Positions 1 through 19,441 of a stretch of DNA of 32,000 nucleotides are shown one piece after another. Both the position numbers and the translations under genes were made by a program. Source of the stretch: Candidatus Saccharimonadota bacterium (GTDB lineage: Bacteria; Patescibacteriota; Saccharimonadia; Saccharimonadales; UBA4665); the NCBI GenBank assembly GCA_016700375.1, contig CP065016.1, positions 1,224,495 to 1,256,494 on the forward strand, given 5' to 3'. The notes under the pieces were generated by a model. The model worked only from the letters and a program-made list of their open reading frames with translations. It made no database searches and was not told where the DNA came from. How positions within the stretch are numbered: the first letter of the stretch is position 1; each line of letters starts with the position of its first letter.

Positions 1-208
1 CGTAAAAGAATGCGACGAACTCGCTTATAAGAGGATCGGATACCCAGTATGGCATTTGTATAACGCCATTTTCGTCAGTCTCACCACCCTGAGTCTTGCC
101 CCAACTACCCTCATGGGACTGGACGCGATTGTTGATATCAACAAATTGCTCCCAAGTCTCATCACTGAGTTCCGAAAATGCTTTTACCGATTCTTCTGTT
201 GCGTCCAT
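1..208 (-). CDS. hypothetical protein, N-terminal 69 codons only (gene runs off the left edge)
   Basis: Own minus-strand translation from ATG 208-206 gives MDATEESVKAFSELSDETWEQFVDINNRVQSHEGSWGKTQGGETDENGVIQMPYWVSDPLISEFVAFFY, open to position 1. The start abuts the upstream stop (TAAATG) and is preceded by GAGGAGGA. It is absent from the ORF track because it is truncated. Confidence 0.5.
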   Translation of the reverse strand, partial: MDATEESVKAFSELSDETWEQFVDINNRVQSHEGSWGKTQGGETDENGVIQMPYWVSDPLISEFVAFFY

Positions 209-2392
209 TTATTCATCCTCCTCATCAGTCGTCTTTTTGGCAGTGAGTTCGGCTTTGATATCATCATGTGCGAGATTGAACGTACTTCCAAGTGCAGCAA
301 TAAGCCGCCGTTTGCTGTTTGTGTTTGTTCCGGTGTCGATGAAGTACCCAGTGTCTAATATCTCGGCGCTGTTATAGAACGCGCTGGCATCCTGTCGGAT
401 AAAGCGCGAAAGATATTCATCCTCAGTTACCATCTCGATAAAGTCGGGATTTCGGCTGTAAATAGCTTCTGCGATAGCGTCCAGCGCCTCGGCCCAAGTT
501 GTCACCGAACTCTCTTCGCCGAATACTTCGACCGAACGGATACCTGCGCCTTTCAGATCCATTTCATCGAGCAAGTATATCGTGGTGTCTTCTTCTACCG
601 GCTGGAAAGCGGTTACAGGGAGTGGCCATACTTTTTTGAGACTGGTAACCCACCAATTCTGACGCTCCTTGAGAGTATCTTCGTTCCAGGTATCGTGTTT
701 CGCAATCCATTCATTGAGTGGTAATTTGCTATCAGCGAAGCCGACTTTTCGCACTTCTCCCGTTTTCTTATCCTTGACCTCAAGATTCATTTTGTCGAGA
801 TATGGACGGTTAGAATACTCAGAGTTATAGCCAGTTAGCGTGAGGTTGGCTAGTGTATGGAGATAATCACGGTGAATGCGCTCAAAGTCATCACCGAGCA
901 TAGCCTGCCAGTCTTTGCTTGCCAGCGTCTGGGGCATGACATGCTCAATTGAGAGTTTTAGCTTGCCATCGGAAATCTGATGCAGCGTATGGACGGCCTC
1001 TTTTGATGATTCCTCGGCAGCAGTGAGAACATAGACGAGGAATGAGTTTCGCTGGTAGTACGCCTCGCGCGAGCGAATCGCGTTTTCATACTCTGCGTCG
1101 TCTGGCATGCGCGTTTGACCGATACGGTTAAGCAGAATATATCGAAGTACCTCTACGTAATCTGCGTCGGGGCTTGTCTTCTGGTAGCTTAATACATCTT
1201 TGTGAAGCGATGCCAAGAAGCGGTCTACGCTCGTAGTATCTATGCCGCTCACGATACGACGCGAGAAGTACGTTTCGATGAGCTTAAAGACATCCTCAAG
1301 CTGTAAATCGGTAAGTTCACCAGCCGCATGATGGCGCAACACATTCATGGCGAACGGAATATACAAATCAATCTGCAAGTAGCGCATCTTGAAGATGGTT
1401 TCACTAATGCCTTTGTACTTTGGCTCAAACTCGCTCGTGTCAATCAGCTTCAGGAGCTTGTAAAATCCAAGTGACTCGACGATATCGCTATAGAATACGT
1501 CAATCTTGTCTTCTTCTTGTGCTTCACCGACATGCTTATCAAACTGCTTCTTGAACTCCGGGTAGACGGCATCCAATCGTACAATAGCTTGGCGCTTCGA
1601 GATTATGTAGCTACGGAAGAAATCAGTAATATGGTCTTTGTTAGAGTCCACCAGCGATTCTTCGATAATTGACCAGTACTTTTCATAAACTTGGTTGCGG
1701 AGCTGATCATTGCTAAGCATGAGTGCAAAGTTACGAATTTTGTCACCATCTGTCAAAGGCTTGCCGGTCGAGTTAATGCTCTCGAAGACGCGCTGAGGGT
1801 TGTCGTCGTTGCCGTTGAGAGTGATGGAAATAACCTCAAACATACGCAAGCCGTCAATGTACTTATCAAGGCCGGTACGCGCCTGGAAGTACTTGCGGAA
1901 TGTCGAGTAGACCTGATAGATATTGCTCACGCGTTCGCGAGGTTCGAGGCGCGATTCTTCGCCATCTTTATCAAAAATATGTTGCAAAATCTGGTTGTCA
2001 GTTGTGACGGTACGGAGCTTGACTTTGTTCTTGTCAATATTCGCGTTGAAGAGATAACGATCGCGGATAAGTTCTGGTGTCGTCTCTGGGTTTTCAATCA
2101 GCGATGGATCTTTTTTGACGAGGTGATAAATTGCCGTTACCATCAAAAGCGACGTCGTGACGCGCTGTTGACCGTCAATAATAGCTACTGAATAGCTGCT
2201 GGCGGTGTCTTCGACAAGCACAACCGTACCGAAATAATGGTTTCTCCGCTTAGCAACACTCTCTTCGAGATCAATCAGAAACTCATTCGCATTGTTTGTT
2301 TGCCATGCATAGGGTCGTTGGAAGTTCGGTATCTCATAGTATGTCTCTGAGGCGTTGAGAATCTTCTGGATATTAGTCTGTGCCGAAATCAT
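209..2392 (-). CDS. DUF262/DUF1524 family protein (GmrSD-like, putative modification-dependent nuclease)
   Basis: N-terminal DUF262 signatures FQRPYAW and IIDGQQR. C-terminal DUF1524-type His-Me motif IEHVMPQT. I prefer ATG 2392 (AGGAGGA 8 nt upstream, 1 nt after the upstream stop). The ORF-track start 2440 would overlap the upstream gene by 47 nt. Confidence 0.85.
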   Translation of the reverse strand: MISAQTNIQKILNASETYYEIPNFQRPYAWQTNNANEFLIDLEESVAKRRNHYFGTVVLVEDTASSYSVAIIDGQQRVTTSLLMVTAIYHLVKKDPSLIENPETTPELIRDRYLFNANIDKNKVKLRTVTTDNQILQHIFDKDGEESRLEPRERVSNIYQVYSTFRKYFQARTGLDKYIDGLRMFEVISITLNGNDDNPQRVFESINSTGKPLTDGDKIRNFALMLSNDQLRNQVYEKYWSIIEESLVDSNKDHITDFFRSYIISKRQAIVRLDAVYPEFKKQFDKHVGEAQEEDKIDVFYSDIVESLGFYKLLKLIDTSEFEPKYKGISETIFKMRYLQIDLYIPFAMNVLRHHAAGELTDLQLEDVFKLIETYFSRRIVSGIDTTSVDRFLASLHKDVLSYQKTSPDADYVEVLRYILLNRIGQTRMPDDAEYENAIRSREAYYQRNSFLVYVLTAAEESSKEAVHTLHQISDGKLKLSIEHVMPQTLASKDWQAMLGDDFERIHRDYLHTLANLTLTGYNSEYSNRPYLDKMNLEVKDKKTGEVRKVGFADSKLPLNEWIAKHDTWNEDTLKERQNWWVTSLKKVWPLPVTAFQPVEEDTTIYLLDEMDLKGAGIRSVEVFGEESSVTTWAEALDAIAEAIYSRNPDFIEMVTEDEYLSRFIRQDASAFYNSAEILDTGYFIDTGTNTNSKRRLIAALGSTFNLAHDDIKAELTAKKTTDEEDE

Positions 2393-2393
2393 A

Positions 2394-3557
2394 TTATTCA
2401 TCCTCCTTGTTCGGCACAATCGCCTGTAAATCTTTGTCATAGTGAAAATCTACGATATCGCCGTTCTGTAGCATGTTGACTGCCTGCTCAATGGCAAGCA
2501 GTGGCACTGAGTACCACTCACTCGGCGTATAGTCACGTCCGTCTTTGTCGATAATCGTCAGGTCTACTTTTGCATCGGCAAATATTCGATGAATAAAATG
2601 TTCTACTTTTTGAGGATTATAGTCTCCAGTCAGTACATAGCTATCGACGACTTCTACGCCAGACATCAAGTATGTTGGGTCTTTTTCTGCATCTTTAATA
2701 CGATCAGCCACAGTGGTAGTTGCGAATCCAATCTTGTGTAGATTCTTGATATTTTGCACTTGTGGACTATCGCTCAGTGAACGTAAAACGTAAATGTAGC
2801 CCACAATAGTATCAGTGTCACTTAGCTCTTCGTATACGGATTCATCTGCTATCGGTACAATCTCATATCCATCTTCGTATAGACGCATAGAAAGTGATCG
2901 CCGGTACATATTTGATTCAGTGCCATTTTCGTATATGATTCTAAACCGTTCTTTGTTCCGGTCGTATACCCATTTCTTCTCACCGGCATCAATGATGCGA
3001 AGCATCTGGCCAGCATGCACATAGTACGCCCCCATATGTAGTTGATTGACTGACACGTAACGACGGAGCTTTAGCTTGCCCTCTGCGAGAAGTTGCTGTT
3101 GTTCGACAAATCCAGGTTTATACTCCTGAAAATCTGCTGCGTGTTTGCGGTCGGCTCGTTCTTTAACGGGTCGCGGCTTGGACAGTACTTTACTGACTTT
3201 TAGGATGTCGTCGCCATCGCTACTAAATAATCCATATGTATCATCAGAAAATAGTTCGTCTATTGATTCTGGCGCTTCAAGTTCTTCGAGCAGTCCAAGA
3301 CTATCGACGGGCTTGAGCGCTTCAACCTTGTCTTTATTTGTTTTTATCGAGTTCAAACGAGCCGCTAATGATGCCTCGCTAATATCGGTTGCATTGATAT
3401 CGGGCAAGCGATCATTGATTTCTACAAACTCGGTGATCTGTTTGAATGATGAGGTCAGTCGATCATCGGCAGTAATAGGCTTGGCTTTTTCCTGCGCAGT
3501 AAATAGACCCTCGTTATCTGTATCGAATAGATTTATTAACTCATCAGAAAAGTCCAT
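2394..3557 (-). CDS. T5orf172 domain protein (GIY-YIG superfamily nuclease-like) with an acidic N-terminal region
   Basis: The C-terminal half has GYIYVLRS ... LHKIGFATTTVADRI ... EHFIHRIF, the pattern of T5orf172/GIY-YIG domains. The start ATG 3557 overlaps the helicase stop by 1 nt (TAATG). Confidence 0.8.
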   Translation of the reverse strand: MDFSDELINLFDTDNEGLFTAQEKAKPITADDRLTSSFKQITEFVEINDRLPDINATDISEASLAARLNSIKTNKDKVEALKPVDSLGLLEELEAPESIDELFSDDTYGLFSSDGDDILKVSKVLSKPRPVKERADRKHAADFQEYKPGFVEQQQLLAEGKLKLRRYVSVNQLHMGAYYVHAGQMLRIIDAGEKKWVYDRNKERFRIIYENGTESNMYRRSLSMRLYEDGYEIVPIADESVYEELSDTDTIVGYIYVLRSLSDSPQVQNIKNLHKIGFATTTVADRIKDAEKDPTYLMSGVEVVDSYVLTGDYNPQKVEHFIHRIFADAKVDLTIIDKDGRDYTPSEWYSVPLLAIEQAVNMLQNGDIVDFHYDKDLQAIVPNKEDE

Positions 3558-5527
3558 TATGCCTGCTTTTCTTTCTCTCTAAGCCATGCTGCTTTACGAG
3601 CAGTCAGGTATGCTTGCGCCTGAGCAAGTAACTTCTCATTTTTATCAGGGCTATTGATTGCTGGGTACTTGCCGTCATGAGCCACGACGAATGCTTTGAT
3701 CTGTGGCACGAGGGCAAGGGCATCTTCGTCTGACATGTCGATACGTGAGCCTGCTATCGTGTCTTGGATGACGCGGAATACATCAGCGCCAACGCGCTTC
3801 GAGATGACTTCAAATGCGTGCTGGAATGGGTTTATAGAATCAATCAGGTCGATACTGAGTTCGTCAAGGTTCACAAAACTATTGGCGAGCGTGATAAACT
3901 TTTTGTCGCCATCTTCGGTAATCTTAGCAGTCTTAAATGCAAGATTACTTGCTAGGTACTGTCGGGTTACTTCGACTTCTTCCTCGTTAAGTCCAGGTAG
4001 ACGTTCACGAATGATTTTAGACTGTAAGTGCTTCATGTAGTCACCAGTATGGCCATTTGCCGCTGCACGCTGAATCTGTGTATCTTGCAGTACGGCTGCC
4101 GTTAGGTCTTCGAGTTCGGTGGCAAGAATATGTTTAACCTTTTCTGATGGTGGTTTTTTGAGGCCTTTAACAAATACTTCACCAGCCTTTGCTTTTTGGT
4201 CGGGTGATGTACGTGGCGTGAATGTAAAGTTAGGCGCTAGTACTTGTTCCATCAAGAGAGAGGCGGTGATCGCCTTGAGCATGTTATTGACTGAAACTTG
4301 TATGTCGTCACTTGTGCCATTTGGCTGCACGATTAGATTTGTAAACTGCGCGTGAGACTTGTTGTAGCTATCACGAGTACAGCGGCCAATGATCTGCACG
4401 ATCTCCGTCAGGCTTGCCCTGTAGCCTATAGTTAGCGCCTGTTCACAGTAGGGCCAGTCAAAGCCCTCCTTTGCCATACCGAGTGCGATAATGATGTCTA
4501 CGCCAGCAATATCGTTTTTAGCAACGTCACTGAGGTACTGGGTGATCTTAGCCCTATGCAACGGGTCATCCTCTACGAGATTGGCGACTTTTACACGACG
4601 ACCATCTGGCGTTTCTATGATTTCTACACCGGTCTCGCTGTCTTGTTCTATCCATGTCCCAATAAGGTCAAAAATGCGCGTAACTTCTTCGTGCTTACCA
4701 ACTTGAGTCGATTCTTTTGAGTTGACGTTTGGAATGTGAATAATTGTCTTTTTATTCGTATCTAGCACAGCATCTAGTGCGCCGTCATCGAGATAACTAC
4801 CAGTGTAGAAGTGATAGCCAATACCAAGCGTCTTGAGGTATGTATACCCATTGAGCTGTTCGTAATAGGTATAGGTTACTTTATCGAACTCTGATTCGTC
4901 TTCTGGCGTAAGGATTGGAATGGCATCGCCACGGAAGTATGAGCCGGTCATAGCAATAATCTGAATGTTAGTGCCGTTCATGACACGGTGCAGCAGTTCA
5001 CCCAATCGGCTGTTTTCGCTAACAGACACATGGTGGAACTCGTCGATAGCCAGAACGGTATCATTAAACAACTCCATAGGGAGTTCTTCGGCCTCAAATG
5101 CAAAACGTAGGGTTGCATGAGTACAGACAAGTATCTTGTCATCGGACTTCATGAAGCTTGTAAATGATTTCACTTTTGATTTGTCGTCGCCAGTACCGAG
5201 GCAGAGATTGTTGCGATCTTCTACTTCCCAGTCTGCGAAAAAGCCTGCTTCTGTCAGATTTGTGTTACCGAATGATGAACCGATAGATTTTTCTGGTACG
5301 GCAACGATGACTTTTTTCTTGCCTTGGTTGATAAGTTTATCGAGGCCGACATACATAAGGGCACGAGACTTACCCGATGCTGGTGGCGCTTTGATGAGTA
5401 GATGATTGCTGTTGCGCTTATCAAATGCGCGGCGCTGCATTTCGCGCATTCCCATTTCATCAGTCTTGGTACTTTCGCCAGTCTGTTCATAGGTTACATC
5501 AATAATGTTCAGGGTTTCGTCGTTCAT
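3557..5527 (-). CDS. SF2 DExH-box helicase (type III restriction Res-like helicase core), C-terminal ~200 aa unknown
   Basis: Motif I KAPPASGKSRAL, motif II AIDEFHHV, motif VI QIIGRCTRD. There is a 4-nt ATGA overlap with the methyltransferase gene. Confidence 0.85.
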   Translation of the reverse strand: MNDETLNIIDVTYEQTGESTKTDEMGMREMQRRAFDKRNSNHLLIKAPPASGKSRALMYVGLDKLINQGKKKVIVAVPEKSIGSSFGNTNLTEAGFFADWEVEDRNNLCLGTGDDKSKVKSFTSFMKSDDKILVCTHATLRFAFEAEELPMELFNDTVLAIDEFHHVSVSENSRLGELLHRVMNGTNIQIIAMTGSYFRGDAIPILTPEDESEFDKVTYTYYEQLNGYTYLKTLGIGYHFYTGSYLDDGALDAVLDTNKKTIIHIPNVNSKESTQVGKHEEVTRIFDLIGTWIEQDSETGVEIIETPDGRRVKVANLVEDDPLHRAKITQYLSDVAKNDIAGVDIIIALGMAKEGFDWPYCEQALTIGYRASLTEIVQIIGRCTRDSYNKSHAQFTNLIVQPNGTSDDIQVSVNNMLKAITASLLMEQVLAPNFTFTPRTSPDQKAKAGEVFVKGLKKPPSEKVKHILATELEDLTAAVLQDTQIQRAAANGHTGDYMKHLQSKIIRERLPGLNEEEVEVTRQYLASNLAFKTAKITEDGDKKFITLANSFVNLDELSIDLIDSINPFQHAFEVISKRVGADVFRVIQDTIAGSRIDMSDEDALALVPQIKAFVVAHDGKYPAINSPDKNEKLLAQAQAYLTARKAAWLREKEKQA

Positions 5528-8349
5528 TTTGTTTTCTCCTTTTCAGTAGCGGTCATTTGTTCAAATAGTGCGAATAGATCGGCGAGTCGTTCTTCGTCAT
5601 TACCGTATGGTCTTGGTCGATATAGTTTATCTACCGCAAGATCAAGTTCATGATGAGCCTGTCGCAAATCTTCCGGCATCTTGATTGGATCGTACATTTC
5701 GGCAAGAGTTTTTTCGCTATGGTTTTCACGAACAAGAAGCACATTGCGTGCAGCAGAAGTGAGCATCTGCTTTTGTGGCTCAGTTAGTGGCGGTACAGGA
5801 TAGTTAGCATAAACAATTGCAGAAGAGTATCGTAGCCGATCTTCAAGTTTCCCAGCAACGGAACGAATCCATGCCATGTGCATGCGAGAAGATATGATTC
5901 CAAATAGCCAAATAGGAGCATCATATACTATATTCGCAGCATTTGAGGCTACAGTGTTGCCGTCTAAGAACCCAATTGGTATGTATTCACGACGTTCCGA
6001 CGAAACACTAGGTATGATAATTGCTTGACCATTTTTATGTGCTCGCTGACGGAATCGATGTGGGTATTTAGCATACTCAACCGTTGAGGGTGTATCTTTG
6101 CGACTAGCCCTAAACTCTGCGACATTCGCAATCATTTCGGCAATAGGAGGAATCGTTTTTGCTTCATCAGCATCCGCATCGCTAATCCATAAACAGTACC
6201 TAGTTTTGCCATTGATGTAATCGCCCGAACCAGTGAACCCTTTAATGAACTTGGCAGCATCAGGATATTCAGAAATTATCTTCTCTCTCTTTTCTTCATC
6301 GAATATCAAGAATCCACCATCTGTTGGCTTACTCCCCATTACGCAGTCAGGTAGTCCACTGATTGACTTGGCCCGACGAGTAAAGAATATCGAGTCTGAA
6401 CCGGCAGTAAGATACGCGCTAATACTAGGTACTTCTGTACGAACAAGATTGTCGTAGATAAACTTCTTAGCCTTACTTGTTGAACGTAAATTGATAACGA
6501 CAACTGTTACACCGGCTACATTGCGAGCGCCGTTTGTCCATTTGAATGAAGTATAGGCAAAGCCTATCTCTACATTCTTGTCGAAGACGTATGGCCACAA
6601 TAAGGCCACTTGTTCGCCCTGGCAAATAGAGTTTGTTGATACGAATGCGAGCTGTGCTTTAGAATCCTGTATATAGTCTGCACCTATCTTGAACCATGCA
6701 GCAATGAGGTCGAGATTCTTGTAGTTCTTAAAACTCTTGAATACGTGCGTCATGTCTCGCTTTTGGTCTGCATCTTGCAAGCTAGAGCCAAGATATGGAG
6801 GGTTGCCGATTAAGTAAATCTCATCCCAATACTTTTGCTTTAGGTCTTCGTCAGAGATTAAAGCTTCTTGTTCGTTTTCGACTTCGATATCGAGGAGGTA
6901 TTGCTGATCTGGCTGAGTATTATCTATGACGTGTTCGATATTTGGACAAACTTCTCGCCAGTCAATTTGCATAGAGTTACCCTGTACGATTTTTGCGTTA
7001 TCCTTGAGCGGGATCAGGATAATTTCTTTACCAAAGTGCTGCTCAAACTCGATGTTCATCTGGTGTTTAGCAAGGTATAGCGAAAGAATGGCAATCTCAT
7101 GTGCGAAATCGTCAATCTCTATTCCATAAAAGTTATCGAGCTTGATCTTTGATTCAAGCTTGCCAGATAGCATCGCACGCTGGTAGTCGCTGCTAAACAG
7201 ACGGTCGATAATACCATGCTCGATTTTGCGCAGTTCTTTGTAGGCAATAATCAGGAAATTACCAGAACCACAGGCAGGGTCGAACACCTTGATTTTGCTA
7301 ATCCGCGACCATATGTTATTGAGCTTATTTGGATTGTCGTAATACTTGTCGAACTCTTCGCGTAGCTCATCGAGGAATAGAGGTTCGATAGTCCGCATGA
7401 TGTTTGGCACGCTGGTATAGTGCATGCCGTTAGTCGCGCGGTGCTCTTCGTCAACGATACTTTGGAACATAGAACCGAAAATATCTGGGTTAATCGTTGA
7501 CCAGTCCAAGTTTCCGCAATCAAGCATAAGTTTTCGAGCTTGCGCATTAAACTTCGGGATGGCGATACTGTGCTTCTTGGTGTCGAAAATCGTACCGTTG
7601 ACGTACGGGAACTTTGAATAAGGGCTAGTGAAGCTCGACTTATCGTCAGTATCTAAAGCATCAAATAGTGTATTGAGGAAAACGTCCAGGTCGCTACCGT
7701 CTGTCTGTGTATAGTCCTTGATGGAGCTGGTAAAGATGGTCTTTTCATCTTTACTAAAGACCTTTGTATCTTCTGCAAAGAAACAAAACAACAACCTTGA
7801 AAAGAATACGTTGAGGTCGTGTCTGAATGTATTTTTTGGATCGGTAAGCTTTTCCTGATTGACCTTTTCTATCTCAGCATAGAGGTCTTTCATCTTATCG
7901 GCAGCGCGACGATCGGCCACTGCTTCTGTCTTTTCGCTTGTAACTTCATCGCCAGTCCAACCGTAGAAGAAATCTACGTTGCGGTCGATATCACGAAGTT
8001 TTATGTCTAGGGTTGTGTCTTTTTTCGTATCTTTGGCTACAAGCTGGTCATAATCAGTTGCTATGAGATAACGAGGGTTATATCGGACCACAAGAGGGTC
8101 TTGATCGAGCGAATCAACAACAGATAGTAAGTTGCCATTCGGGACGTGTTTGAAGTAGACAACTCCACGCTGCAATACGTCATTTTCTTTGTCAGTAGCT
8201 AGGTTGAGCGCACCACTACGAAGCTTTGTGATCGCCGAAGCAGAACGACCATATGCGGCCAATAGTTCAAATATAACATCGAGGCTATATGACTCCCGAT
8301 TGGCAATTTCTGTTACATTTCTTTGGGCATCAGCAAAAGTCAGTCGCAT
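5524..8349 (-). CDS. MmeI-family (type IIL/IIG-like) N6-adenine DNA methyltransferase, 941 aa
   Basis: Collinear by-eye similarity to MmeI: LLFCFFAEDT, DGSDL, FPYVNG, LDWSTINPDIFGSMFQS, HYTS, EPLFLDEL. SAM motif I is VFDPACGSGNFLI and motif IV is IGNPPYLG. The C-terminal blocks are FVSTNSICQGEQVALLWP, SKPTDGG, IPIGF and YDPIKMPEDLRQAHHELD. Confidence 0.9.
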   Translation of the reverse strand: MRLTFADAQRNVTEIANRESYSLDVIFELLAAYGRSASAITKLRSGALNLATDKENDVLQRGVVYFKHVPNGNLLSVVDSLDQDPLVVRYNPRYLIATDYDQLVAKDTKKDTTLDIKLRDIDRNVDFFYGWTGDEVTSEKTEAVADRRAADKMKDLYAEIEKVNQEKLTDPKNTFRHDLNVFFSRLLFCFFAEDTKVFSKDEKTIFTSSIKDYTQTDGSDLDVFLNTLFDALDTDDKSSFTSPYSKFPYVNGTIFDTKKHSIAIPKFNAQARKLMLDCGNLDWSTINPDIFGSMFQSIVDEEHRATNGMHYTSVPNIMRTIEPLFLDELREEFDKYYDNPNKLNNIWSRISKIKVFDPACGSGNFLIIAYKELRKIEHGIIDRLFSSDYQRAMLSGKLESKIKLDNFYGIEIDDFAHEIAILSLYLAKHQMNIEFEQHFGKEIILIPLKDNAKIVQGNSMQIDWREVCPNIEHVIDNTQPDQQYLLDIEVENEQEALISDEDLKQKYWDEIYLIGNPPYLGSSLQDADQKRDMTHVFKSFKNYKNLDLIAAWFKIGADYIQDSKAQLAFVSTNSICQGEQVALLWPYVFDKNVEIGFAYTSFKWTNGARNVAGVTVVVINLRSTSKAKKFIYDNLVRTEVPSISAYLTAGSDSIFFTRRAKSISGLPDCVMGSKPTDGGFLIFDEEKREKIISEYPDAAKFIKGFTGSGDYINGKTRYCLWISDADADEAKTIPPIAEMIANVAEFRASRKDTPSTVEYAKYPHRFRQRAHKNGQAIIIPSVSSERREYIPIGFLDGNTVASNAANIVYDAPIWLFGIISSRMHMAWIRSVAGKLEDRLRYSSAIVYANYPVPPLTEPQKQMLTSAARNVLLVRENHSEKTLAEMYDPIKMPEDLRQAHHELDLAVDKLYRPRPYGNDEERLADLFALFEQMTATEKEKTK

Positions 8350-8435
8350 TAAATTAAATCTTCCCCTGTATACAGACAGTAATCATTGTTTAATATTATA
8401 CCGTATTTTGTGTAATTAGTAATACCAATTAGCGT

Positions 8436-8463
8436 TTGACTTTACATAAATCCTTGCTATTCT
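8436..8463 (+). promoter_or_regulatory. candidate sigma70-type promoter for the T4SS operon
   Basis: TTGACT (8436-8441), 16-nt spacer, TATTCT (8458-8463), in the 320-bp divergent intergenic region. The -10 is weak. Confidence 0.3.
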
Positions 8464-8669
8464 AGGAAAATCCATTCGGAACGAAAAACGTCTCCGACAT
8501 TGCTCCCTTATACGGTCATGATGTGGTAATCAGTTGTAGAATTAACTACACCATTGACAGAAGTAGAAAAAGCTTGTGTTTTCGCTGAAAATGTTTATGC
8601 TAAACAAGCTATGACACGTTTCGTGATATATTCAAATCACAATATTTTATATATTCACGGAGGGTTATA

Positions 8670-9014
8670 ATGATCAGAAGTTCCACGGAAATAAAAATAG
8701 TAGGGCTTATTGTGGCCGTCGGAGCGCCAATTGTACTTGCTGCTCCAGCGTTTGCCGCAGGGGGTGACGTTGCGCAAGTCGAGAGCTTCATACGCAATGT
8801 CATTAAAGTTATCGCAGGTTTAGCTGGTCTTGTCGCGACCGGCTTTTTTGTTGCTGGCGGTTTCACCTACATTACTAGCTCGGGCAATCCTGAGCAGCTC
8901 GACAAAGCAAAGCGTACATTGACATGGTCGGCTATTGGCCTCGCTATTGTCATCGCAGCGTTCGTCATAAGCAATATCGTTACGACACTGGCCACCCAAT
9001 CATTCGGAGGGTAG
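8670..9014 (+). CDS. TrbC/VirB2-like conjugative pilin
   Basis: The sequence has a signal-like N-terminus (LAAPAFAAG) followed by two hydrophobic helices flanking TSSGNPEQLDKAK, which is the VirB2/TrbC topology. The RBS is GGAGGG. Confidence 0.6.
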   Translation: MIRSSTEIKIVGLIVAVGAPIVLAAPAFAAGGDVAQVESFIRNVIKVIAGLAGLVATGFFVAGGFTYITSSGNPEQLDKAKRTLTWSAIGLAIVIAAFVISNIVTTLATQSFGG

Positions 9015-9021
9015 CTAGGAT

Positions 9022-10515
9022 ATGTTTTGGGGTATGGGTGACGTCCTGGCGACGAGTTTAACGCTGTTTGCTGATACGTCCGGTGCTGTAACGGCCATGC
9101 AAAATTACGTTGCACCGACGATACAAACACTTGCTGCACTTGCTTCGATAGCTTGCGTGTTCTTTATTGTAAACGCTGGCTACCTTTACATGACAAGCAG
9201 CGGCAAGCCAGAGCAAATGGATCACGCTAAGCATGTTCTGAAAAATGCACTCTTAGGATTGCTGATTGTTCTGGCCGCCGCAACCCTTGTTTCAATACTG
9301 TCGAATGCTTACGGATCGCCGCACGATGTTAATAACGCGACCTTGCCAAACCTACAGTCAATCCCTCCAAACGACGTAGGTAATGGACTGATAGATATTC
9401 TGATTAAGGCAGTTACGGGCTTCCTCAACAACATCATACAGGCAGTCGCAACGCCATTCCTGGATGCGCTCAACTTCTTCACGAAGTCAACGCCTCTAAT
9501 GGCAGAGAATCAAAGTGTTTTCAACTTCTGGCTGGCAATGGTTGGTATATCCGACGTGCTGTTCGTCGTGATTATCGCGCTCTTGGGCTTCCATGTCATG
9601 AGTGCTTCGACATTCGGATTCGATGAGATCGAGTTCAAGCATCTTCTCCCCCGTGTTGCGTTAGTTTTCTTGCTCATGAATACGTCCATATTCTTTATTG
9701 ATGGAATCATTGAGTTATCGAACGCGCTCATAACTGCGGTAGGCAAAGTGTCTGGCGCATCATCAGTCTGGGACACTCTAACATCTGTCGTAAAAGAGGC
9801 AGGGGGTCAAGGATTGGCAGCGCTAATCATGATGATGGCGTTTATTGTCTTCTCGGTCATCCTGCTCGTGTACTATGTCGGACGTTTAGTGACACTATTC
9901 ATCGGTGCAGTCTTGTCTCCACTGGTGACACTACTCTGGCTTGTACCTGGCTTCCGGGATTTTGCAGAGACAGCATTCAAAACGTACCTCTCAACCATCT
10001 TTGTACTATTCGTACATGTCGTCATTCTTCAGCTATCCGCATCACTGTTCACCGGTATGGCGGCAAGTAGCGGTAATGATGTACCAGACACGCTCATGGC
10101 CATGGTCGTTGGGCTGGCTACCGTCATGGCCCTACTGAAAACTCAGAGTGTCATGATGCAATTCAGCTACGTCAGCATGGGAGCGCGAAACATGCGAAAG
10201 CTAGGCGGTCAGTTTATCAATGGCGTAAGCTACATGACCGGCAAAGGCAAAGCCGCCGCCAGCACCGTTCGCTCAAAGACTGACAGTGCTAAAAAGGCTC
10301 GTGCAATGTCAAGCGTAGAGTCGCGAGCTGTTCGCACTGGTAAAACCCAAAGTGTCAGCTACTCGAACAAGAAAGGTAACGCAGAAATTACCCATACCGC
10401 AACACCAAATCCAAAAGGGACACCAAAATCCACTGGCACGACCTATGAAGCTCCGGCAGTCAAAGTCACCAGAATCAACCACCCTAAAAACAATAGCAAG
10501 GACAAAATAGGATGA
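9022..10515 (+). CDS. fusion of a second VirB2-like module with a polytopic VirB6/TrbL-like membrane domain
   Basis: The N-terminal region (IACVFFIVNAGYLYMTSSGKPEQMDHAKHVLKNALLGLLIVLAAA) is paralogous to the upstream pilin. It is followed by at least 6 hydrophobic segments and a basic, Ser/Thr/Lys-rich tail. Confidence 0.6.
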   Translation: MFWGMGDVLATSLTLFADTSGAVTAMQNYVAPTIQTLAALASIACVFFIVNAGYLYMTSSGKPEQMDHAKHVLKNALLGLLIVLAAATLVSILSNAYGSPHDVNNATLPNLQSIPPNDVGNGLIDILIKAVTGFLNNIIQAVATPFLDALNFFTKSTPLMAENQSVFNFWLAMVGISDVLFVVIIALLGFHVMSASTFGFDEIEFKHLLPRVALVFLLMNTSIFFIDGIIELSNALITAVGKVSGASSVWDTLTSVVKEAGGQGLAALIMMMAFIVFSVILLVYYVGRLVTLFIGAVLSPLVTLLWLVPGFRDFAETAFKTYLSTIFVLFVHVVILQLSASLFTGMAASSGNDVPDTLMAMVVGLATVMALLKTQSVMMQFSYVSMGARNMRKLGGQFINGVSYMTGKGKAAASTVRSKTDSAKKARAMSSVESRAVRTGKTQSVSYSNKKGNAEITHTATPNPKGTPKSTGTTYEAPAVKVTRINHPKNNSKDKIG

Positions 10516-11021
10516 AAGTAACAGTCGTACCAGCTCAGGTTACAACCGTAGAAGATCGAATTATTGGTAATCTTGGCTTCTCTCAGATGCTCTTGATGAT
10601 TATCCCTGTATTTGTAAGTGCGGCACTGTTCGCCCTCCTCCCTCCGTTTATGGGGAGCGCTCTGTATAAATATCTCATCATGGGCATATTGGCGCTCGTC
10701 TGCTGCATCCTTGCGATACGCATAAAAGGAAGAATCCTCGCCTCGTGGCTCGTAACAATATCTCGCTATAATGTCCGGCCGAAGTATTATCTCTTTAACA
10801 AAAATGTGTTGACCCTACGACAAGATTATCCAGTCGTCTCTGAGGTAAAAGAGGAAGATAAAACGACTGCCAAAAGCAAAGAACGAATTGCATTACCTCG
10901 TCTGAATACCCCCGATACCGCAAGAATCCTCGCAACCATTGAAAATCCTGCCGCAAGAGTTCGTTTTGAAACCACAAAGAAAGGAGGCCTAAATGTTCGC
11001 CTTACAGAAATCGAAGAGTAA
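10512..11021 (+). CDS. PrgI/VirB3-like small T4SS membrane protein
   Basis: N-terminal PAQVTTVEDRIIGNLGFSQMLLMI is followed by two TM helices, and the gene sits immediately upstream of VirB4. There is a 4-nt overlap with the preceding gene. Confidence 0.55.
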   Translation: MKVTVVPAQVTTVEDRIIGNLGFSQMLLMIIPVFVSAALFALLPPFMGSALYKYLIMGILALVCCILAIRIKGRILASWLVTISRYNVRPKYYLFNKNVLTLRQDYPVVSEVKEEDKTTAKSKERIALPRLNTPDTARILATIENPAARVRFETTKKGGLNVRLTEIEE

Positions 11022-11652
11022 AACCAGTTCACGTAATCAGATCGCGATCAAAGGTGTACGCGATGGTGTACTTATGCTGCCAAATAACGAGTACCGTGCA
11101 ATTCTGCAAGTCTCATCGCTTAATTTTGAATTGCGCAGCGAAGAGGAGCAAGACGCAATCATCGACATATATGAGAGTTTTCTAAACTCCGTCGGATCAT
11201 CCCTCCAGATACTAATACGTACTCGTGAAATTGATATGGATAAGTACCTTGAAGACCTGACAGAACGACTAGACGACGAGACTGAGGAAATCTACCGCTC
11301 TCAGTTGATTAATTACGACGAGTTCATTAGATCGCTCATCACAAACAACAAGATTCTCACCCGACACTTCTATGTCATTGTTCCGTACAGGCCGAATGGT
11401 AAAGCGGATTTTGAGCTTATCGAAGAACAACTAAACATTAAGCTCGACATTGTGGCCAAAGGTATGACGCGACTCGGTATGCACACTAATCAACTGGATA
11501 GTCTTGAGGTGCTTGATTTGTTCTATAGCTTCTATAGTCCAACTCAGGCAAAGATACAGCCGCTAACCGAACAGGCATTGCAGTTGATACATACCGCACT
11601 TGTTGAGAAAGGAGAAGAAACCCATGCCCGTAAAACTCGAAAAACTAAATAA
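10993..11652 (+). CDS. VirB4-type N-terminal domain protein (separate ORF)
   Basis: IAIKGVRDGVLMLPNNEYRAILQVSSLNFELRSEEEQDAIIDIYESFLNS matches the N-terminal domain pattern of VirB4/TraE/PrgJ ATPases. The RBS is AAAGGAGG. Confidence 0.6.
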   Translation: MFALQKSKSKTSSRNQIAIKGVRDGVLMLPNNEYRAILQVSSLNFELRSEEEQDAIIDIYESFLNSVGSSLQILIRTREIDMDKYLEDLTERLDDETEEIYRSQLINYDEFIRSLITNNKILTRHFYVIVPYRPNGKADFELIEEQLNIKLDIVAKGMTRLGMHTNQLDSLEVLDLFYSFYSPTQAKIQPLTEQALQLIHTALVEKGEETHARKTRKTK

Positions 11653-13402
11653 GCTCAGTCATAAAGTTGTTGACCCTATTATGACGCCAATTAAGAAGCG
11701 TCAGCAAGCACGGATTGACCGCCAGAAAGAGCTAACTATTGCTTTTGGCGAACAGGATGCAATCGACACGCTGTCATACGCAGGACTTGAAGAAAACGTT
11801 GATTATCTTTGTATCGACGGCGTATATATTCGCACTCTCTACATATCGGGATATCCTTTTGTCGCGAACTCTGGCTGGATGGACAGCCTCATCAATTTCA
11901 ACCACAACTCGGATATCAGCTACCATTTACATGAAGTGAGCGCATTATCGGCATTGCCGAAATTGCATCGTAAGATCACTGAGCTTGAATCTACTAAACG
12001 TGCCATGATGCGTGCTGGGAAGATCGTCGGCTCGGAGATTACTGATCCGCTAGAATCTGCGATGGAGCTACGTGACAAAATCCAACGTGGCCAAGAAAAG
12101 CTATTCCAAATGGCAATCTATGTCAGTATTCGGGCCGAGAGTCTAGAGGAGCTAGATAAGACGACACAGCTACTCGAAGCTACAATGTCAGCACGGTTGT
12201 TCTATTCAAAAGTCGCACGCTATCAGCAGCTCGAAGCGTTGCAATCTATCTTGCCTCGTGGCGAAGATCAACTTGGTCAGAAACGAAACCTGGACAGTAG
12301 TTCGGCCGCCTTGACATTCCCATTCATGTCTTCGGAGCTTGTACAGGAATCTGGTATTTTGTACGGAGTCAATAAATCAAACAACTCACTCGTTATCCTC
12401 GATCGGTTTAGTCTGCATAATGCGAATAGTATTGTGTTCGCTCAGTCCGGTTCAGGCAAGAGCTACACGACAAAAGTGGAGATTTTACGCCAGCTCATGC
12501 AAGGTACTAAAGTCATCGTCATCGACCCGGAGCGTGAATACAAACGACTTACTGAATCCGTCAAAGGCACGTACATCAAGCTATCTGCCAAGAGCAAGCA
12601 AAAGATCAATCCGTTTGATTTGGCGACGACGTTTCATAAGATTAGCGACCTGTCTGAACATGCCCAAGACCTTACTGAAGTAATTAGTCTGATGGCCGAG
12701 GGATTATCCTCCCGCGAGAAAGCCTCAGTTGATAAAGCAATCCTCAAAATCTACAAGAAAGCCAAGAAGCAGCAGCCCCTTCTTGAAGACTTGTACGCGG
12801 AGTTGCAGTCTCTCGGACAGCTAAAACTCTGCGAACGACTCGAGAGGTATATATCAGGCTCACTAGCGGATGTATTTAACGCACAGACAAACATCAAGCT
12901 TGATAATCGACTCGTGATTTTCGACATCAAGGATTTGCCTGAAAGTTTGCGTCAGATCATGATGCTCATCATCAGCAACTTCGTGAAGAATCAGGTCATG
13001 GCCGCTCCAGAAAAGCGTCTGTTGATAATAGACGAGGGTTGGATGCTCCTGGAACACGAAGAGTCAGCTCGGTTTGTTGCCGGTCTAGTTCGTCGCGCAC
13101 GTAAGTACTATCTTGGTGTGTCTATCATTTCGCAGCAAGCAAATGACTTCCTGCGCAGTGATTATGGCCGTGCCATTGCATCACAGTCTGCACTGCGTAT
13201 TCTGATGCGTCAGGATACAACCACGATTAAAAATGTTGTCTCAGAGTTTAACCTGAGTGAGTACGAACAAAGCTTTCTGCTTACTTGCGAACGAGGTGAT
13301 GCACTTATCATTGCCGATCAGAACCACGTAGCCGTCAAGGTGGTGGCATCTGACAAAGAACATCCTCTCATCACCACTAACCCTGCGGAGCTGTACTCGT
13401 GA
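11624..13402 (+). CDS. VirB4-like T4SS ATPase (middle and ATPase domains)
   Basis: Walker A FAQSGSGKSYT and Walker B LLIIDEGWMLL. I prefer ATG 11624 (AAAGGAG upstream) over the track TTG 11600. Confidence 0.85.
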   Translation: MPVKLEKLNKLSHKVVDPIMTPIKKRQQARIDRQKELTIAFGEQDAIDTLSYAGLEENVDYLCIDGVYIRTLYISGYPFVANSGWMDSLINFNHNSDISYHLHEVSALSALPKLHRKITELESTKRAMMRAGKIVGSEITDPLESAMELRDKIQRGQEKLFQMAIYVSIRAESLEELDKTTQLLEATMSARLFYSKVARYQQLEALQSILPRGEDQLGQKRNLDSSSAALTFPFMSSELVQESGILYGVNKSNNSLVILDRFSLHNANSIVFAQSGSGKSYTTKVEILRQLMQGTKVIVIDPEREYKRLTESVKGTYIKLSAKSKQKINPFDLATTFHKISDLSEHAQDLTEVISLMAEGLSSREKASVDKAILKIYKKAKKQQPLLEDLYAELQSLGQLKLCERLERYISGSLADVFNAQTNIKLDNRLVIFDIKDLPESLRQIMMLIISNFVKNQVMAAPEKRLLIIDEGWMLLEHEESARFVAGLVRRARKYYLGVSIISQQANDFLRSDYGRAIASQSALRILMRQDTTTIKNVVSEFNLSEYEQSFLLTCERGDALIIADQNHVAVKVVASDKEHPLITTNPAELYS

Positions 13403-14010
13403 ATCCAGCCGTAGTGCTATTTGGTGTCGCTGGATATAATCCGAAGCGCACTATATCACTCGTGCTTGCAACCCTTGTCGTCATATTGTCATTGCCATTC
13501 ATGGCCGTCATGTCGATGGGTACAGATGTCCTGAGCTTTTTATCTGGCACACCAGATGCAAAAGCTGCCGAGACTCAAGGTTTCTATATGGGTGGCCCTG
13601 TTCCTGGAGATACCTACGAATGGGGCAACTGTACCTATTGGTCATTCGCGATGCGGCTTTGGGCTGGTACTCCGATACCTACAACCTGGGGTAATGCGAA
13701 TACATGGGATGATCGCGCTCGTGCCGATGGCTATGAAGTTAACCACACGCCAGCCGTAAATGCCGTTTTCCAGACTGATGAGGGCGATTGGGGTCACGTT
13801 GCCTATGTCATTAAAGTCGATGACAAAACTGGAGACTGGACGATATCAGAGATGAACGCACCGCATCTGAATGTAGTTTCGCAGCGGACGTTCTCGAAAG
13901 ATTCGGCGCAGTATTATAGCTTTATACACGGCAAGAAAGGAGAGCCATGGACACCAAAGCCTATCTTGAATCCATCGTTGAACATTGGCAGCCCATCGTT
14001 GTCGTTCTAG
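13399..14010 (+). CDS. membrane-anchored CHAP-domain peptidoglycan hydrolase (VirB1 functional analogue)
   Basis: N-terminal TM helix, with Cys/His CHAP signatures GNCTYWSFAMRLW and WGHVAYVIKV. The GTG start overlaps the VirB4 stop. Confidence 0.8.
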   Translation: MNPAVVLFGVAGYNPKRTISLVLATLVVILSLPFMAVMSMGTDVLSFLSGTPDAKAAETQGFYMGGPVPGDTYEWGNCTYWSFAMRLWAGTPIPTTWGNANTWDDRARADGYEVNHTPAVNAVFQTDEGDWGHVAYVIKVDDKTGDWTISEMNAPHLNVVSQRTFSKDSAQYYSFIHGKKGEPWTPKPILNPSLNIGSPSLSF

Positions 14011-16565
14011 CGGCTATCGTCGTTACGTTCTTCGTGGTTATCTTTGTACGCGCACTTTTCAACCGTCGTCATCTCCTACGCCGCGATATGGTTTGGCTTG
14101 AGATTACGCCACCGGCCAGTATTGCAAAAACACCAGAGGCTACTGAACAACTCTTTTCTGTAATCCACGGTGCTCGTGCCGCTAGGCAGCTCAAGGAGAA
14201 ACTGTACAATCGTGCGCCAGTGATGAGTTTTGAGATTGTATCGACGCGCAAAGACGGTATTCGCTATTTGCTACAGGTTGAGAAAACACGCTCGAAAAAC
14301 ATACAAAAGACGATCACATCGTATATTCCGGATTCCAAGGTTAAAGAAGTTACTCGTGACATAGGTGACGTCGATAAGGTCATCGACTTTAAGGAAACTG
14401 GACACTATGTTCTACCCCTTACATTGACCTCTGTGATCGAACAACACGACCCTTTGTCATACGTCACAGGTGCGATGACAAAGCTAAACGACGACGAAGA
14501 AATTACTCTACAAATCGTCGCTACACCGGTCAGGCTACGTGAAGCCGATATACTTTCACATAAGATTCTCGGCAACGAAAATATCTTGCAGCAAGTGAGC
14601 GGTAAACAGCTAACCATACTCGGACGTTTTACAAACATTTTTGGCAAAGCTTCATCGGGACTTACCGATCTAGCTGGTGAAGTGTATATGGGTACGACAT
14701 TTGGTCATAAAGAGTACTACAGTTCTAAATCGCGCACAGTGCAGCAGCAAGCGCGAGTAACCACACACGACAGACCATCACGAACACTAAGCGCCTTTGA
14801 ACTGGAACTCATGGAAACAATGCACCAAAAAGTGACACGTCCACTTTTTCAAGTCAGCTTGAGAGTTTTGGTCAAAAGCCCAGAGGCAAAACAACACATC
14901 TCAGCACTAAGATCGGCACTTGATGGCTATAGCGTTCCGCCTTATCAATCGCTCAAAGCAAAAATGTCTCTGCCTATTCTCGATACAATCCGACAAAAAG
15001 CTGCTGCAAACCGGTTGCCGACGTTTTCGCGTCGTGCCTCGCTGATTCTTGCATCAACTGAGCTAGCGAGCCTCTACCACTTCCCGTCGAGCCAGGTTAG
15101 CAAAACAGACAATCTCATCACATCACTTAGTCGCACACTGCCTGCGCCGGTGTCGCTAAAGTCCGGCAAGAAACTGGCAATCAAGATTGGTGAAAACCAT
15201 CATCACGAGACTATTACTCCAATCGGCTTGACGGAAGCAGAGCGCGAACGACATATGTATATTATCGGTGGTACGGGCAACGGTAAAACAACCATGCTGT
15301 TTTATGAAATCCTGCAAGATATTCGCGCTGGCAATGGCCTCGCGGTCATTGATCCGCACGGTGACTTAGCAGAGAGGATTTTGCGCTATATCCCTGAGGA
15401 TCGCGTAAAGGACGTGATATACATGAATCCTGACGACCTCATGTACCCAATTGGCATGAATCTATTGGAGCTATCGCCTGATCTTACGGGGGATGACTTG
15501 CTGCGCGAGAAAGACCTTATCACAGAAGCCACGATATCTGTATTACGTAAGATATTCTCCGATGATGACTCTGGCGGCCATCGCATTGAATACGTGCTGC
15601 GAAATGCGATTCAGACTGCTTTAACGCTCGAAGAGCCGACACTTTTCACTATCTTTGAATTACTGAATGACGCAAAGTTCAGGCGCAAGGTAGTGAAAGG
15701 CCTTGAGGACAAAAACTTGAAAGACTTTTGGAGCAATGAGATTGGCAAAGCCGGTGATATGCAGAAAGTTAAGATGGCGGCTGGCATCACGGCCAAAATC
15801 GGTCGCTTCCTATTCTCGGCTTCAGCACGCCGGATGCTTGAACAGCCAAAATCAACTATCAACTTTGAAGATGTCCTTGCTGGCAAAAAGATATTGATCT
15901 GCAACTTCTCAAAGGGCTTGCTCGGTGAAGACACGTCAGCACTTTTCGGCACGACAGTACTCGCAAAGATACAAACAGCGGCCTTGCGCCGTGCCCGTAT
16001 CGGCCAAAGTGATCGCTCGCCATACTATCTCTATGTTGACGAGTTTCAAAACTTCGCTACAACTGGGTTTGTGCAAATGCTATCAGAGGCTCGCAAGTAC
16101 AAGCTATTCCTGACGATGGCAGAACAGTCTACTTCACAGCAAGACGAGCAGCGCCTTGTCGACATCATACTTGCGAATGTGGGTACGGTCGTATGTTTCC
16201 GATCTGGTAGTCCAGCGGACGAACGCCTCGTCTTACCACTTTTCATGCCATTCATTGACCAGGGTGAAATAGCCAATCTGCCAGCGTATTCGTACTACGT
16301 CCGAATCTCAGCCGTAAATGCGCAAGAACCTATGTCCGGCATAACTATTGTTGTTGAGGAGAATGGTAGTGGGTCTACTGCCGAACAAGTCCTTAAATCC
16401 TCAAGAGAACTTTATGCAAAGAGGATTGAAGTAGAGGCAGAAGTAGCAACAATCGAGCCAGAACCAAAACCTATTAAAAAGCCGAGTGCAAAGCGTAAAC
16501 CAAAGACAAATCACGCGACCAAAAAAGCCAGTGATGAATTATCGGAGATGAAGCCGGTCGCATAA
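13947..16565 (+). CDS. type IV coupling protein (VirD4/TraG/TraD-like ATPase)
   Basis: N-terminal TM helix, Walker A IIGGTGNGKTT, Walker B YYLYVDEFQNF, and a Lys/Pro-rich C-terminal tail. The RBS is AAAGGAG. Confidence 0.85.
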   Translation: MDTKAYLESIVEHWQPIVVVLAAIVVTFFVVIFVRALFNRRHLLRRDMVWLEITPPASIAKTPEATEQLFSVIHGARAARQLKEKLYNRAPVMSFEIVSTRKDGIRYLLQVEKTRSKNIQKTITSYIPDSKVKEVTRDIGDVDKVIDFKETGHYVLPLTLTSVIEQHDPLSYVTGAMTKLNDDEEITLQIVATPVRLREADILSHKILGNENILQQVSGKQLTILGRFTNIFGKASSGLTDLAGEVYMGTTFGHKEYYSSKSRTVQQQARVTTHDRPSRTLSAFELELMETMHQKVTRPLFQVSLRVLVKSPEAKQHISALRSALDGYSVPPYQSLKAKMSLPILDTIRQKAAANRLPTFSRRASLILASTELASLYHFPSSQVSKTDNLITSLSRTLPAPVSLKSGKKLAIKIGENHHHETITPIGLTEAERERHMYIIGGTGNGKTTMLFYEILQDIRAGNGLAVIDPHGDLAERILRYIPEDRVKDVIYMNPDDLMYPIGMNLLELSPDLTGDDLLREKDLITEATISVLRKIFSDDDSGGHRIEYVLRNAIQTALTLEEPTLFTIFELLNDAKFRRKVVKGLEDKNLKDFWSNEIGKAGDMQKVKMAAGITAKIGRFLFSASARRMLEQPKSTINFEDVLAGKKILICNFSKGLLGEDTSALFGTTVLAKIQTAALRRARIGQSDRSPYYLYVDEFQNFATTGFVQMLSEARKYKLFLTMAEQSTSQQDEQRLVDIILANVGTVVCFRSGSPADERLVLPLFMPFIDQGEIANLPAYSYYVRISAVNAQEPMSGITIVVEENGSGSTAEQVLKSSRELYAKRIEVEAEVATIEPEPKPIKKPSAKRKPKTNHATKKASDELSEMKPVA

Positions 16566-17505: not shown

Positions 17506-17509
17506 TACT

Positions 17510-17589
17510 GGAACCTTGGTTCCTTGGTATCCGGAGGGGTCTTGTATTCTTGGACTTTGGTCCTTGAAAACTTTACCTCTCCGGATACC
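17510..17589 (+). other. stem-loops immediately downstream of VR
   Basis: GGAACC-TT-GGTTCC (17510-17523). GGTATCCGGAG (17526-17536) pairs with CTCCGGATACC (17579-17589), extendable to about 14 bp with one G-T. Confidence 0.4.
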
Positions 17590-17623
17590 TGCACTCACTT
17601 TTTGAATTTGTCTCTTATCTGTT

Positions 17624-17656
17624 CCTCTGCTTTAGCAGAGGCGCTTTTAATTTTTT
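17624..17656 (+). terminator. rho-independent terminator after the target gene
   Basis: CCTCTGC-TTTA-GCAGAGG followed by CGCTTTTAATTTTTT. Confidence 0.6.

Positions 17657-17998: not shown

Positions 17999-19441
<1,443 letters not shown>

Follow-up and report, generated by a model that had tools for sequence, protein, structure and literature searches.

A DnmA-YeeB-YeeC-type gene cluster followed by a GmrSD-family gene in a probable stacked defence operon of a Candidatus Saccharimonadota bacterium

The stretch of DNA analysed here, 32,000 nt of Candidatus Saccharimonadota bacterium contig CP065016.1 (assembly GCA_016700375.1, positions 1,224,495-1,256,494 of the forward strand; hereafter the window), carries in its first 8349 positions a run of minus-strand open reading frames, four complete and a fifth running off the edge at position 1. 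An earlier interpretation made from the letters alone (the sequence-only reading) had described these genes as a composite restriction-like operon that fits no known system and might be an under-described variant. Judged by homology, genes 1-3 are instead a DnmA(YeeA)-YeeB-YeeC cluster, of a kind already described in 2009 and mechanistically uncharacterised, represented here by a member from a host of the candidate phyla radiation (CPR). We consider it probable, at about three chances in four, that the whole is a stacked defence operon on a Saccharibacteria element resembling an integrative and conjugative element (ICE), composed of at least two independent modules: a type-I-like restriction-modification (R-M) system of the YeeABC kind and a GmrSD type IV enzyme. 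The features of the locus are the following.

8350-8669, no strand: intergenic region of 320 bp and likely promoter region, separating the operon from a divergently transcribed type IV secretion pilin gene
5527-8349, minus strand, stop codon at 5524-5526: gene 1, YeeA/DnmA-like methyltransferase of the MmeI family, 941 aa
3560-5527, minus strand, stop codon at 3557-3559: gene 2, YeeB-like superfamily 2 (SF2) DExH helicase/translocase, 656 aa
2397-3557, minus strand, stop codon at 2394-2396: gene 3, YeeC-like T5orf172/MUG113 putative nuclease, 387 aa
212-2392, minus strand, stop codon at 209-211: gene 4, GmrSD-like putative type IV enzyme, 727 aa
1-208, minus strand, cut by the edge: gene 5, DUF6508 (Pfam), first 69 codons of a 145-aa protein

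The orientation of the genes and the four coupling junctions claimed for them were confirmed from the sequence. Genes 1 and 2 overlap by 4 nt (ATGA at 5524-5527), genes 2 and 3 by the single common base 3557 (TAATG), genes 3 and 4 are separated by 1 nt (TAA-T-ATG at 2390-2396), and genes 4 and 5 abut with 0 nt between them (TAAATG at 206-211). The Shine-Dalgarno (SD)-like purine runs reported before each junction start are likewise present, as AAGGAG, AGGAGG and GAGGAGG 7-12 nt 5' of three starts and as a purine run 5' of the fourth. Start codons are the same in the gene calls of near-identical contigs; the ATG at 2392 gives gene 4 its 727 aa, and an alternative reading from 2440 would give 743 aa. 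Promoter-like matches inside the operon number 18 against 17.0 expected and terminator-like matches 10 against 8.1, which is chance level and thus fits a single transcription unit. In the intergenic region 5' of the methylase gene lies a TATAAT hexamer (8395-8400, minus strand) that a consensus promoter scan did not call and that we regard as a candidate promoter, read from the sequence; between it and the methylase ATG, the perfect 10-bp palindrome CTGTATACAG (8366-8375) is a possible operator. The 14-mer AGGAGGATGAATAA occurs twice in the whole window, at 209-225 and 2394-2410 (minus strand), that is, at the ends of the GmrSD gene. It was considered as a cassette boundary and rejected, the repeat decaying in the relatives L007 and L096 (L-numbers denote comparison sequences), and it is probably the ordinary context of an SD sequence plus a stop codon. 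An Rfam scan of the whole window returned zero matches.

Pfam upheld the domain calls of the sequence-only reading (MmeI-like, DExH, T5orf172/GIY-YIG and DUF262/DUF1524) and placed the fifth gene, until then without a name, in DUF6508. Gene 1 matches all five MmeI Pfam domains (MmeI_N, _hel, _Mtase, _TRD and _C), the PADLOC model REase_MTase_IIG over its full length (1.9e-286) and MmeI itself (PDB 5HR4) at 7e-168 across residues 87-935, with its methyltransferase motifs intact (motif I DPACGSGNF at 357, NPPY at 516). Relative to MmeI, an acidic insertion of about 40 aa sits in the methyltransferase domain before NPPY (residues ~469-511, window 6817-6945), and the phmmer alignment of the two proteins splits there. 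When the N-terminal 168 aa were searched with phmmer by themselves, MmeI was not matched. A profile of 58 YeeA-like N-termini collected from genome loci could nonetheless be aligned by hhalign with MmeI residues 1-151, whose sequence had been checked against PDB 5HR4 beforehand, at a probability of 87% and an E value of 4e-6. In this alignment MmeI D70 corresponds to D57 of the window protein, a position held by D or E in 86% of the 58 N-termini; E80 corresponds to K67, where K or R is found in 88% of them; and K82 corresponds to V69, at a position that varies across the family. As aligned, the domain is a degenerate homologue of the MmeI nuclease domain that has lost the catalytic ExK, and the active PD-ExK motif that is the hallmark of type IIG/IIL enzymes is absent from it. 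The two replacements (E80 to K67, K82 to V69) agree with the earlier suggestion that cleavage is not performed by the MmeI-like protein itself.

Gene 2 matches Pfam DEAD and ResIII and carries the motifs GKS (52-54), DEFH (162), TGS (194) and QIIGRCTR (378); its full-length homologues, at 44-58% identity, are found in methyltransferase-helicase-GIY-YIG trios of plasmids and genomes. Gene 3 belongs by Pfam to T5orf172/MUG113, of the GIY-YIG superfamily, the T5orf172 domain covering residues 253-362 and the N-terminal 250 aa matching no known domain; GYIYV at 253, KIG at 275-277, R286 and E347-W-Y are invariant or nearly so among 31 homologues. Close homologues of both proteins come from Candidatus Saccharibacteria/Saccharimonadales. 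Against PADLOC v2.0.0 the best result for gene 2 was a partial PbeA match at 8.6e-11, with no match to DrmA or DrmD, and gene 3 matched nothing; searches of PDB sequences with the two proteins gave nothing useful.

This combination of genes has been in the literature since 2009, so that the trio is a placeable one. Morgan et al. (2009; PMC2731913) divided MmeI homologues into two groups, with and without the PD-ExK motif, the latter differing in the first ~100 residues and having a DEAD-like helicase and a GIY-YIG protein 'invariably' as neighbours. In their proposal the cutting is left to the helicase and nuclease subunits, and the MmeI-like subunit supplies the specificity along with the methylation that protects; they found no endonuclease activity in two tested members of the group lacking PD-ExK (PMC2731913). 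The division of labour suggested in the sequence-only reading is therefore reasonable, and it had already been published as the same hypothesis. In Bacillus subtilis the methylase, DnmA, produces N6-methyladenine (m6A) at GACGAG (Nye 2020, PMC7261158; Fernandez 2023, PMC9973331). We found no newer system name for the trio in the literature. The window shares with the described YeeABC clusters the order and orientation of the genes (PD-ExK-less MmeI-like methylase, DEAD-like helicase, GIY-YIG/T5orf172 protein), their overlapping or adjacent junctions, a location in mobile elements or defence islands, and full-length homologues of the three proteins in Bacillus, Staphylococcus, Vibrio and many other phyla. 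Homology at the sequence level was established with the trios of the Bacillus records L003, L039 and L072 and of Vibrio renipiscarius (L029), whereas the cluster of B. subtilis 168 is likened to them by description. The locus differs from these clusters in its Saccharibacterium (CPR) host and ICE-like element, and in the GmrSD and further genes added at the 3' end of the operon.

The conservation of the trio was assessed by scanning species-representative genomes with an alignment of the helicase, which gave at least 599 confirmed stretches, from which 80 loci in 80 species were taken for synteny and their flanks examined for up to 9 kb or to the contig end. The loci come from Saccharibacteria, Pseudomonadota, Bacillota, Actinomycetota, Bacteroidota, Campylobacterota, Cyanobacteriota, Planctomycetota, Chlamydiota and Spirochaetota, among others. 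In 76 of the 80 the next gene 3' of the helicase, on the same strand, is a T5orf172 homologue, the remaining four being contig ends; an MmeI-like gene lies 5' of the helicase on the same strand in 71, the other nine having less than 2.4 kb upstream; in these 80 species the trio is complete wherever the contig extends far enough. The neighbourhood conservation that the sequence-only reading had proposed as a check thus holds for the helicase and T5orf172 genes, and it fails for genes 4 and 5, as described below. The helicase family as a whole comprises 2069 representatives at 50% clustering, and helicase matches occur in 265 plasmid records. The methyltransferase-helicase-GIY-YIG order recurs in annotated plasmids from Bacillus, S. 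aureus, Synechococcus and Falsirhodobacter, with proteins that are full-length homologues of those in the window; a Proteus plasmid has the same order, but there the methylase gene is truncated and adjoins IS26, and the GIY-YIG gene appears in the annotation as two ORFs. At the nucleotide level, window positions 1-9000 gave a single match of 116 nt among plasmids, to the Falsirhodobacter trio, and nothing among E. coli genomes.

Methylase and helicase are separated, in about one trio locus in four, by an insertion of 1-6 kb whose genes lie on the same strand. The inserts sampled encode Hachiman HamB, PD-Lambda-4_A, PDC-M59A, SLFN_AlbA_2+HATPase_c_4 (five times), Fic-HTH and a RelE/ParE pair, the last in a Synechococcus plasmid (L087:3611-8732, L083:2830-8683, L028:7429-8502, L038, L050, L065, L040 and L006:6304-6833). 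Embedding of defence genes has been described for Hma, BREX (bacteriophage exclusion), DISARM (defence island system associated with restriction-modification) and type I systems (bioRxiv 10.1101/2024.01.29.577857). That trio loci do likewise supports assigning the trio, as a defence system, to this general class.

Gene 4 matches Pfam GmrSD_N (DUF262; 1.6e-33) and GmrSD_C (DUF1524; 6.7e-24) and, over about 575 residues, the PADLOC models 'Orf5' (2.3e-100) and HEC-06 (1.2e-50), with the motifs DGQQR at 73 in DUF262 and EHVMP at 483 in DUF1524. By these matches it is a putative GmrSD-family type IV-like enzyme of known kind; it forms a separate defence module outside the trio. Like HEC-06, BrxU/HEC-05, SspE and 'Orf5', it combines DUF262 (DGQQR) and DUF1524 (His-Me) in a single polypeptide, and, as with BrxU and HEC-05/06, its gene adjoins a methylation-based system in like orientation. 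It departs from 'Orf5'/HEC-06 in a C-terminal extension of about 135 aa (residues ~590-727, window 212-622) that matches no family, and from GmrSD-family enzymes in being followed by a DUF6508 gene. HEC-06 has been validated as a stand-alone GmrSD-like defence, and genes of this GmrSD-like sort, BrxU in BREX among them, frequently sit inside methylation-based systems with matching orientation (bioRxiv 10.1101/2024.01.29.577857). A GmrSD homologue accompanies the trio in two of the 80 loci, one of which is independent: in Flavobacterium (L059) an Orf5/HEC-06-type gene directly follows YeeC, and its product has a PDC-S11-like domain fused where the window protein has the C-terminal extension. 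Other Saccharibacteria species (L009, L011, L012, L014) have no GmrSD homologue near the trio.

The gene 5 fragment matches Pfam DUF6508 at 7.4e-6, and its full-length homologue at L007:8348-8785 does so at 2.3e-33; the full-length protein of the window genome is probably P0399. An AlphaFold2 (AF2) model of the DUF6508 protein is confident (predicted local distance difference test, pLDDT, 92), with no structural match in PDB or in the viral structures of BFVD, and a DUF6508 profile run against PDB sequences gave nothing useful. Elsewhere, DUF6508 is found in fusion with a protein that carries a GIY-YIG nuclease annotation, beside a GIY-YIG gene, directly after a HEPN gene, 5' of an AAA_15/21/23 ATPase gene and a few genes from a GmrSD_N gene (L093:7176-8429, L094:5311-6381, L095:5965-6384, L097, L099). 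This company is suggestive, and no more, of a defence accessory. None of the 80 trio loci has a DUF6508 gene nearby.

The five genes are contiguous, as first described, but the operon does not end at gene 5. In contig L090, which is 96.5% identical to window positions 1-15527, and in L007, it extends past the window edge (L090:15320-19604; L007:8348-12632) with four more same-strand genes after DUF6508. In L090 these genes overlap slightly or are 0-3 nt apart, and they encode a DUF2779/Cas4-like protein of 491 aa and then proteins of 105, 547 and 135 aa; the 105-, 547- and 135-aa proteins have no significant Pfam or PADLOC match. A small PLDc_2 gene, a weak match, follows the operon convergently in L090. 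In L089, whose helicase is 93% identical, a full-length Avs4 gene (PADLOC score 1970; L089:13206-17951) replaces GmrSD and DUF6508 after T5orf172, and DUF2779 is retained downstream of it. The flanks of the L089 locus hold a serine recombinase gene, a terminase-like gene and a ParB-methylase gene. In L096, GmrSD and DUF6508 (73% identical) are kept while DUF2779 and the 105-aa gene are gone. Because L089 carries Avs4 and L096 has lost these two genes, we take the 3' part of the operon to be a cargo slot in which defence genes are swapped. It is conceivable, though in our estimate unlikely, that all nine same-strand genes are regulated together as a single layered defence operon, in which DUF6508 would be a new partner to nuclease effectors, in the part of a sensor, a regulator or an immunity factor.

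These comparisons bear on whether the locus could be one integrated system of five components or more, in which the GmrSD-like and DUF6508 proteins would be obligate partners of genes 1-3. The gaps of 1 nt between genes 3 and 4 and of 0 nt between genes 4 and 5, the strong SD sequences, the persistence of the arrangement in L096 with a DUF6508 protein only 73% identical, and the placement of a GmrSD gene directly after YeeC in Flavobacterium would all suit such a system. We give it little credence, however, since 78 of the 80 trio loci lack a GmrSD homologue in their flanks, those of other Saccharibacteria among them, DUF6508 is found in none, Avs4 occupies the same slot in L089, and GmrSD-like genes of the HEC-06 type work alone. 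With GmrSD in two and DUF6508 in none of the 80 loci, and both replaced by Avs4 in L089, the five-gene composite unit of the sequence-only reading does not stand; that reading had itself held that unconserved linkage would mean a juxtaposition of independent systems, and for genes 4 and 5 the linkage is not conserved. GmrSD and DUF6508 are linked to the trio only in a narrow Saccharibacteria lineage, as a lineage-specific stack.

The four complete genes are under strong purifying selection, the ratio of nonsynonymous to synonymous substitution rates (dN/dS) against close relatives being 0.015-0.027 for genes 1-3 and 0.011-0.017 for gene 4. Between the window and L007 (L007:213-3032) the helicases are 99.8% identical and methylase residues 1-330 100% identical, whereas the target recognition domains (TRDs) are 47% identical. 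The swapped TRD comprises residues ~650-856 (window 5800-6400), and its divergence points to a recombinational swap that would imply different specificities.

Beyond the 320-bp intergenic region, and transcribed away from the operon, is a type IV secretion set with genes for a VirB2-like pilin, TrbL/VirB6, PrgI, a VirB4-like ATPase, a CHAP hydrolase and a coupling protein, in agreement with the earlier description of the operon as cargo beside a conjugation module. Farther along are genes for a reverse transcriptase, an FtsK-like protein and a large serine recombinase. The reverse transcriptase (379 aa, window 18302-19441, plus strand) matches Pfam RVT_1 at 2e-20 and PADLOC 'RT' at 2.6e-53, followed by RT_UG17 and RT_UG4; Rfam gave no group II intron or retron RNA match in its region. 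The kilobase before it (window 17001-18000) has a GC content of 56%, against ~45% elsewhere.

The stacked-defence reading, which draws on the observed domain content, ExK loss, trio synteny, non-conservation of gene 4, purifying selection and TRD swapping, would operate as follows. Self DNA would be marked by the MmeI-like subunit, whose TRD would recognise a short asymmetric site and which would methylate an adenine there (NPPY, m6A), as expected from the family; if MmeI and DnmA are a guide, the asymmetry of the site and its modification on one strand are both probable. Having lost the ExK residues, this subunit would be unable to cut in the manner of MmeI. On meeting an unmethylated foreign site it may bring in or license two partners, the SF2 DExH motor YeeB and the GIY-YIG/T5orf172 nuclease YeeC, which would translocate and cleave in a type-I-like division of labour. 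The GmrSD enzyme, with its DUF262 NTPase/ParB-like and DUF1524 His-Me nuclease domains, would attack modified phage DNA that evades the trio, a pairing of methylation with type IV restriction for which BrxU within BREX is a described precedent. The remaining genes, DUF6508 and the four past the edge, would be variable cargo in the same slot.

Several points weigh against this reading. In B. subtilis the cluster neither restricts plasmid transformation nor protects against phage, and DnmA acts there as a regulatory orphan methylase (PMC9973331, PMC7261158). We found no biochemical proof, for any member of the family, that YeeB or YeeC translocates or cuts DNA. The GIY-YIG assignment of gene 3 comes from Pfam and motifs only: a Foldseek search of PDB with its AF2 model (pLDDT 74) gave no match at E <= 1e-3, and the model shows only weak eIF5A/EF-P-like similarities. 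In the N-terminal domain of gene 1 other charged residues, D/E57, R93, D99, D107 and K109, are highly conserved; they are most simply seen as an interaction surface, and from the sequence this role cannot be told apart from that of a relocated active site. Finally, genes 3 and 4 are tightly coupled in translation, which would also suit two genes that cooperate in function.

The B. subtilis results, together with the description of Streptococcus mutans SMU.43, which has the YeeA motif, as an orphan methylase, favour the possibility that gene 1 is an orphan or regulatory methyltransferase serving gene regulation and not defence, its partner genes being relics. At this locus we hold that to be improbable. 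The three ORFs are intact, with conserved motifs and a dN/dS of 0.015-0.03, and the TRD is swapped between near-identical loci, as is typical of diversifying selection; the combination of TRD swapping, intact motifs and low dN/dS argues against the relic reading reached for B. subtilis. The genes moreover reside in a mobile element among other defence genes, and yeeAB of Vibrio crassostreae 7F1_18 confers resistance to a subset of phages (Piel et al., bioRxiv 10.1101/2021.05.05.442762).

MmeI (type IIL/IIG, PDB 5HR4) and gene 1 are homologous in the helicase-spacer, methyltransferase, TRD and C-terminal domains and distantly in their N-terminal domains, but the catalytic E80 and K82 are not conserved in gene 1, which requires, or is in any case always accompanied by, a separate helicase and GIY-YIG protein. 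That gene 1 could be a complete single-polypeptide type IIG/IIL enzyme like MmeI, with genes 2 and 3 as unrelated neighbours, is very improbable: the full-length REase_MTase_IIG match, the presence of MmeI_N and the alignment of D57 with catalytic D70 speak for it, yet the equivalents of E80 and K82 are K and a variable residue family-wide, two members of the subgroup had no endonuclease activity (PMC2731913), and the helicase and GIY-YIG genes are linked to it in essentially every testable locus. With type I R-M (HsdRMS) the trio shares a methylase/specificity unit, an SF2 ATP-dependent motor and a nuclease acting in trans, as well as being a frequent host of embedded defence genes; it differs in having no HsdS, in the separation of motor and nuclease into two polypeptides and in the use of GIY-YIG instead of PD-ExK. 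BREX PglX and DISARM DrmMI are, like gene 1, MmeI-related methyltransferases inside multi-gene defence systems, but the matches of gene 1 to the PglX and DrmMI models are far below the family cut-offs (PglX NCBIfam scores of 16-47 bits against cut-offs of 400-900).

The absence of marker genes for BREX, DISARM, type I and type III systems, as asserted from the sequence alone, was upheld among the operon genes. PADLOC and Pfam found no PglZ, BrxC or BrxL in the window's five genes or in the five that lie downstream in L007, and there was no match to DrmA, DrmB (DUF1998), DrmC (PLD) or DrmD among the window genes and the L007 downstream genes. Neither HsdS or HsdR nor any type III marker protein was matched among the operon genes by Pfam, PADLOC or NCBIfam. 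No Hma model appears among the PADLOC matches listed for the five proteins (the best 25 of 31 for gene 1 and the best 25 of 28 for gene 4). NCBIfam gave the operon genes no family name, its matches being sub-threshold ones to PglX and a single sub-threshold one to dnd_restrict_1. PADLOC, among the proposed checks, likewise has no system name for the whole trio, although it does label gene 1 REase_MTase_IIG and gene 4 'Orf5'/HEC-06. Since PADLOC v2.0.0 is without models for the helicase and nuclease, the methylase is mislabelled as a solitary, complete type IIG enzyme.

YeeABC-type trios are very widespread, under-studied and under-annotated. The locus described here reveals no new principle; it is a clean, intact and strongly constrained example from an episymbiotic CPR bacterium, on an ICE-like element, that is useful for the curation of defence-system databases and is a candidate for mechanistic work. 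If the layered-operon reading is true, YeeABC would be a tractable model of how an MmeI scaffold with a dead nuclease passes unmodified sites on to a split helicase/GIY-YIG pair.

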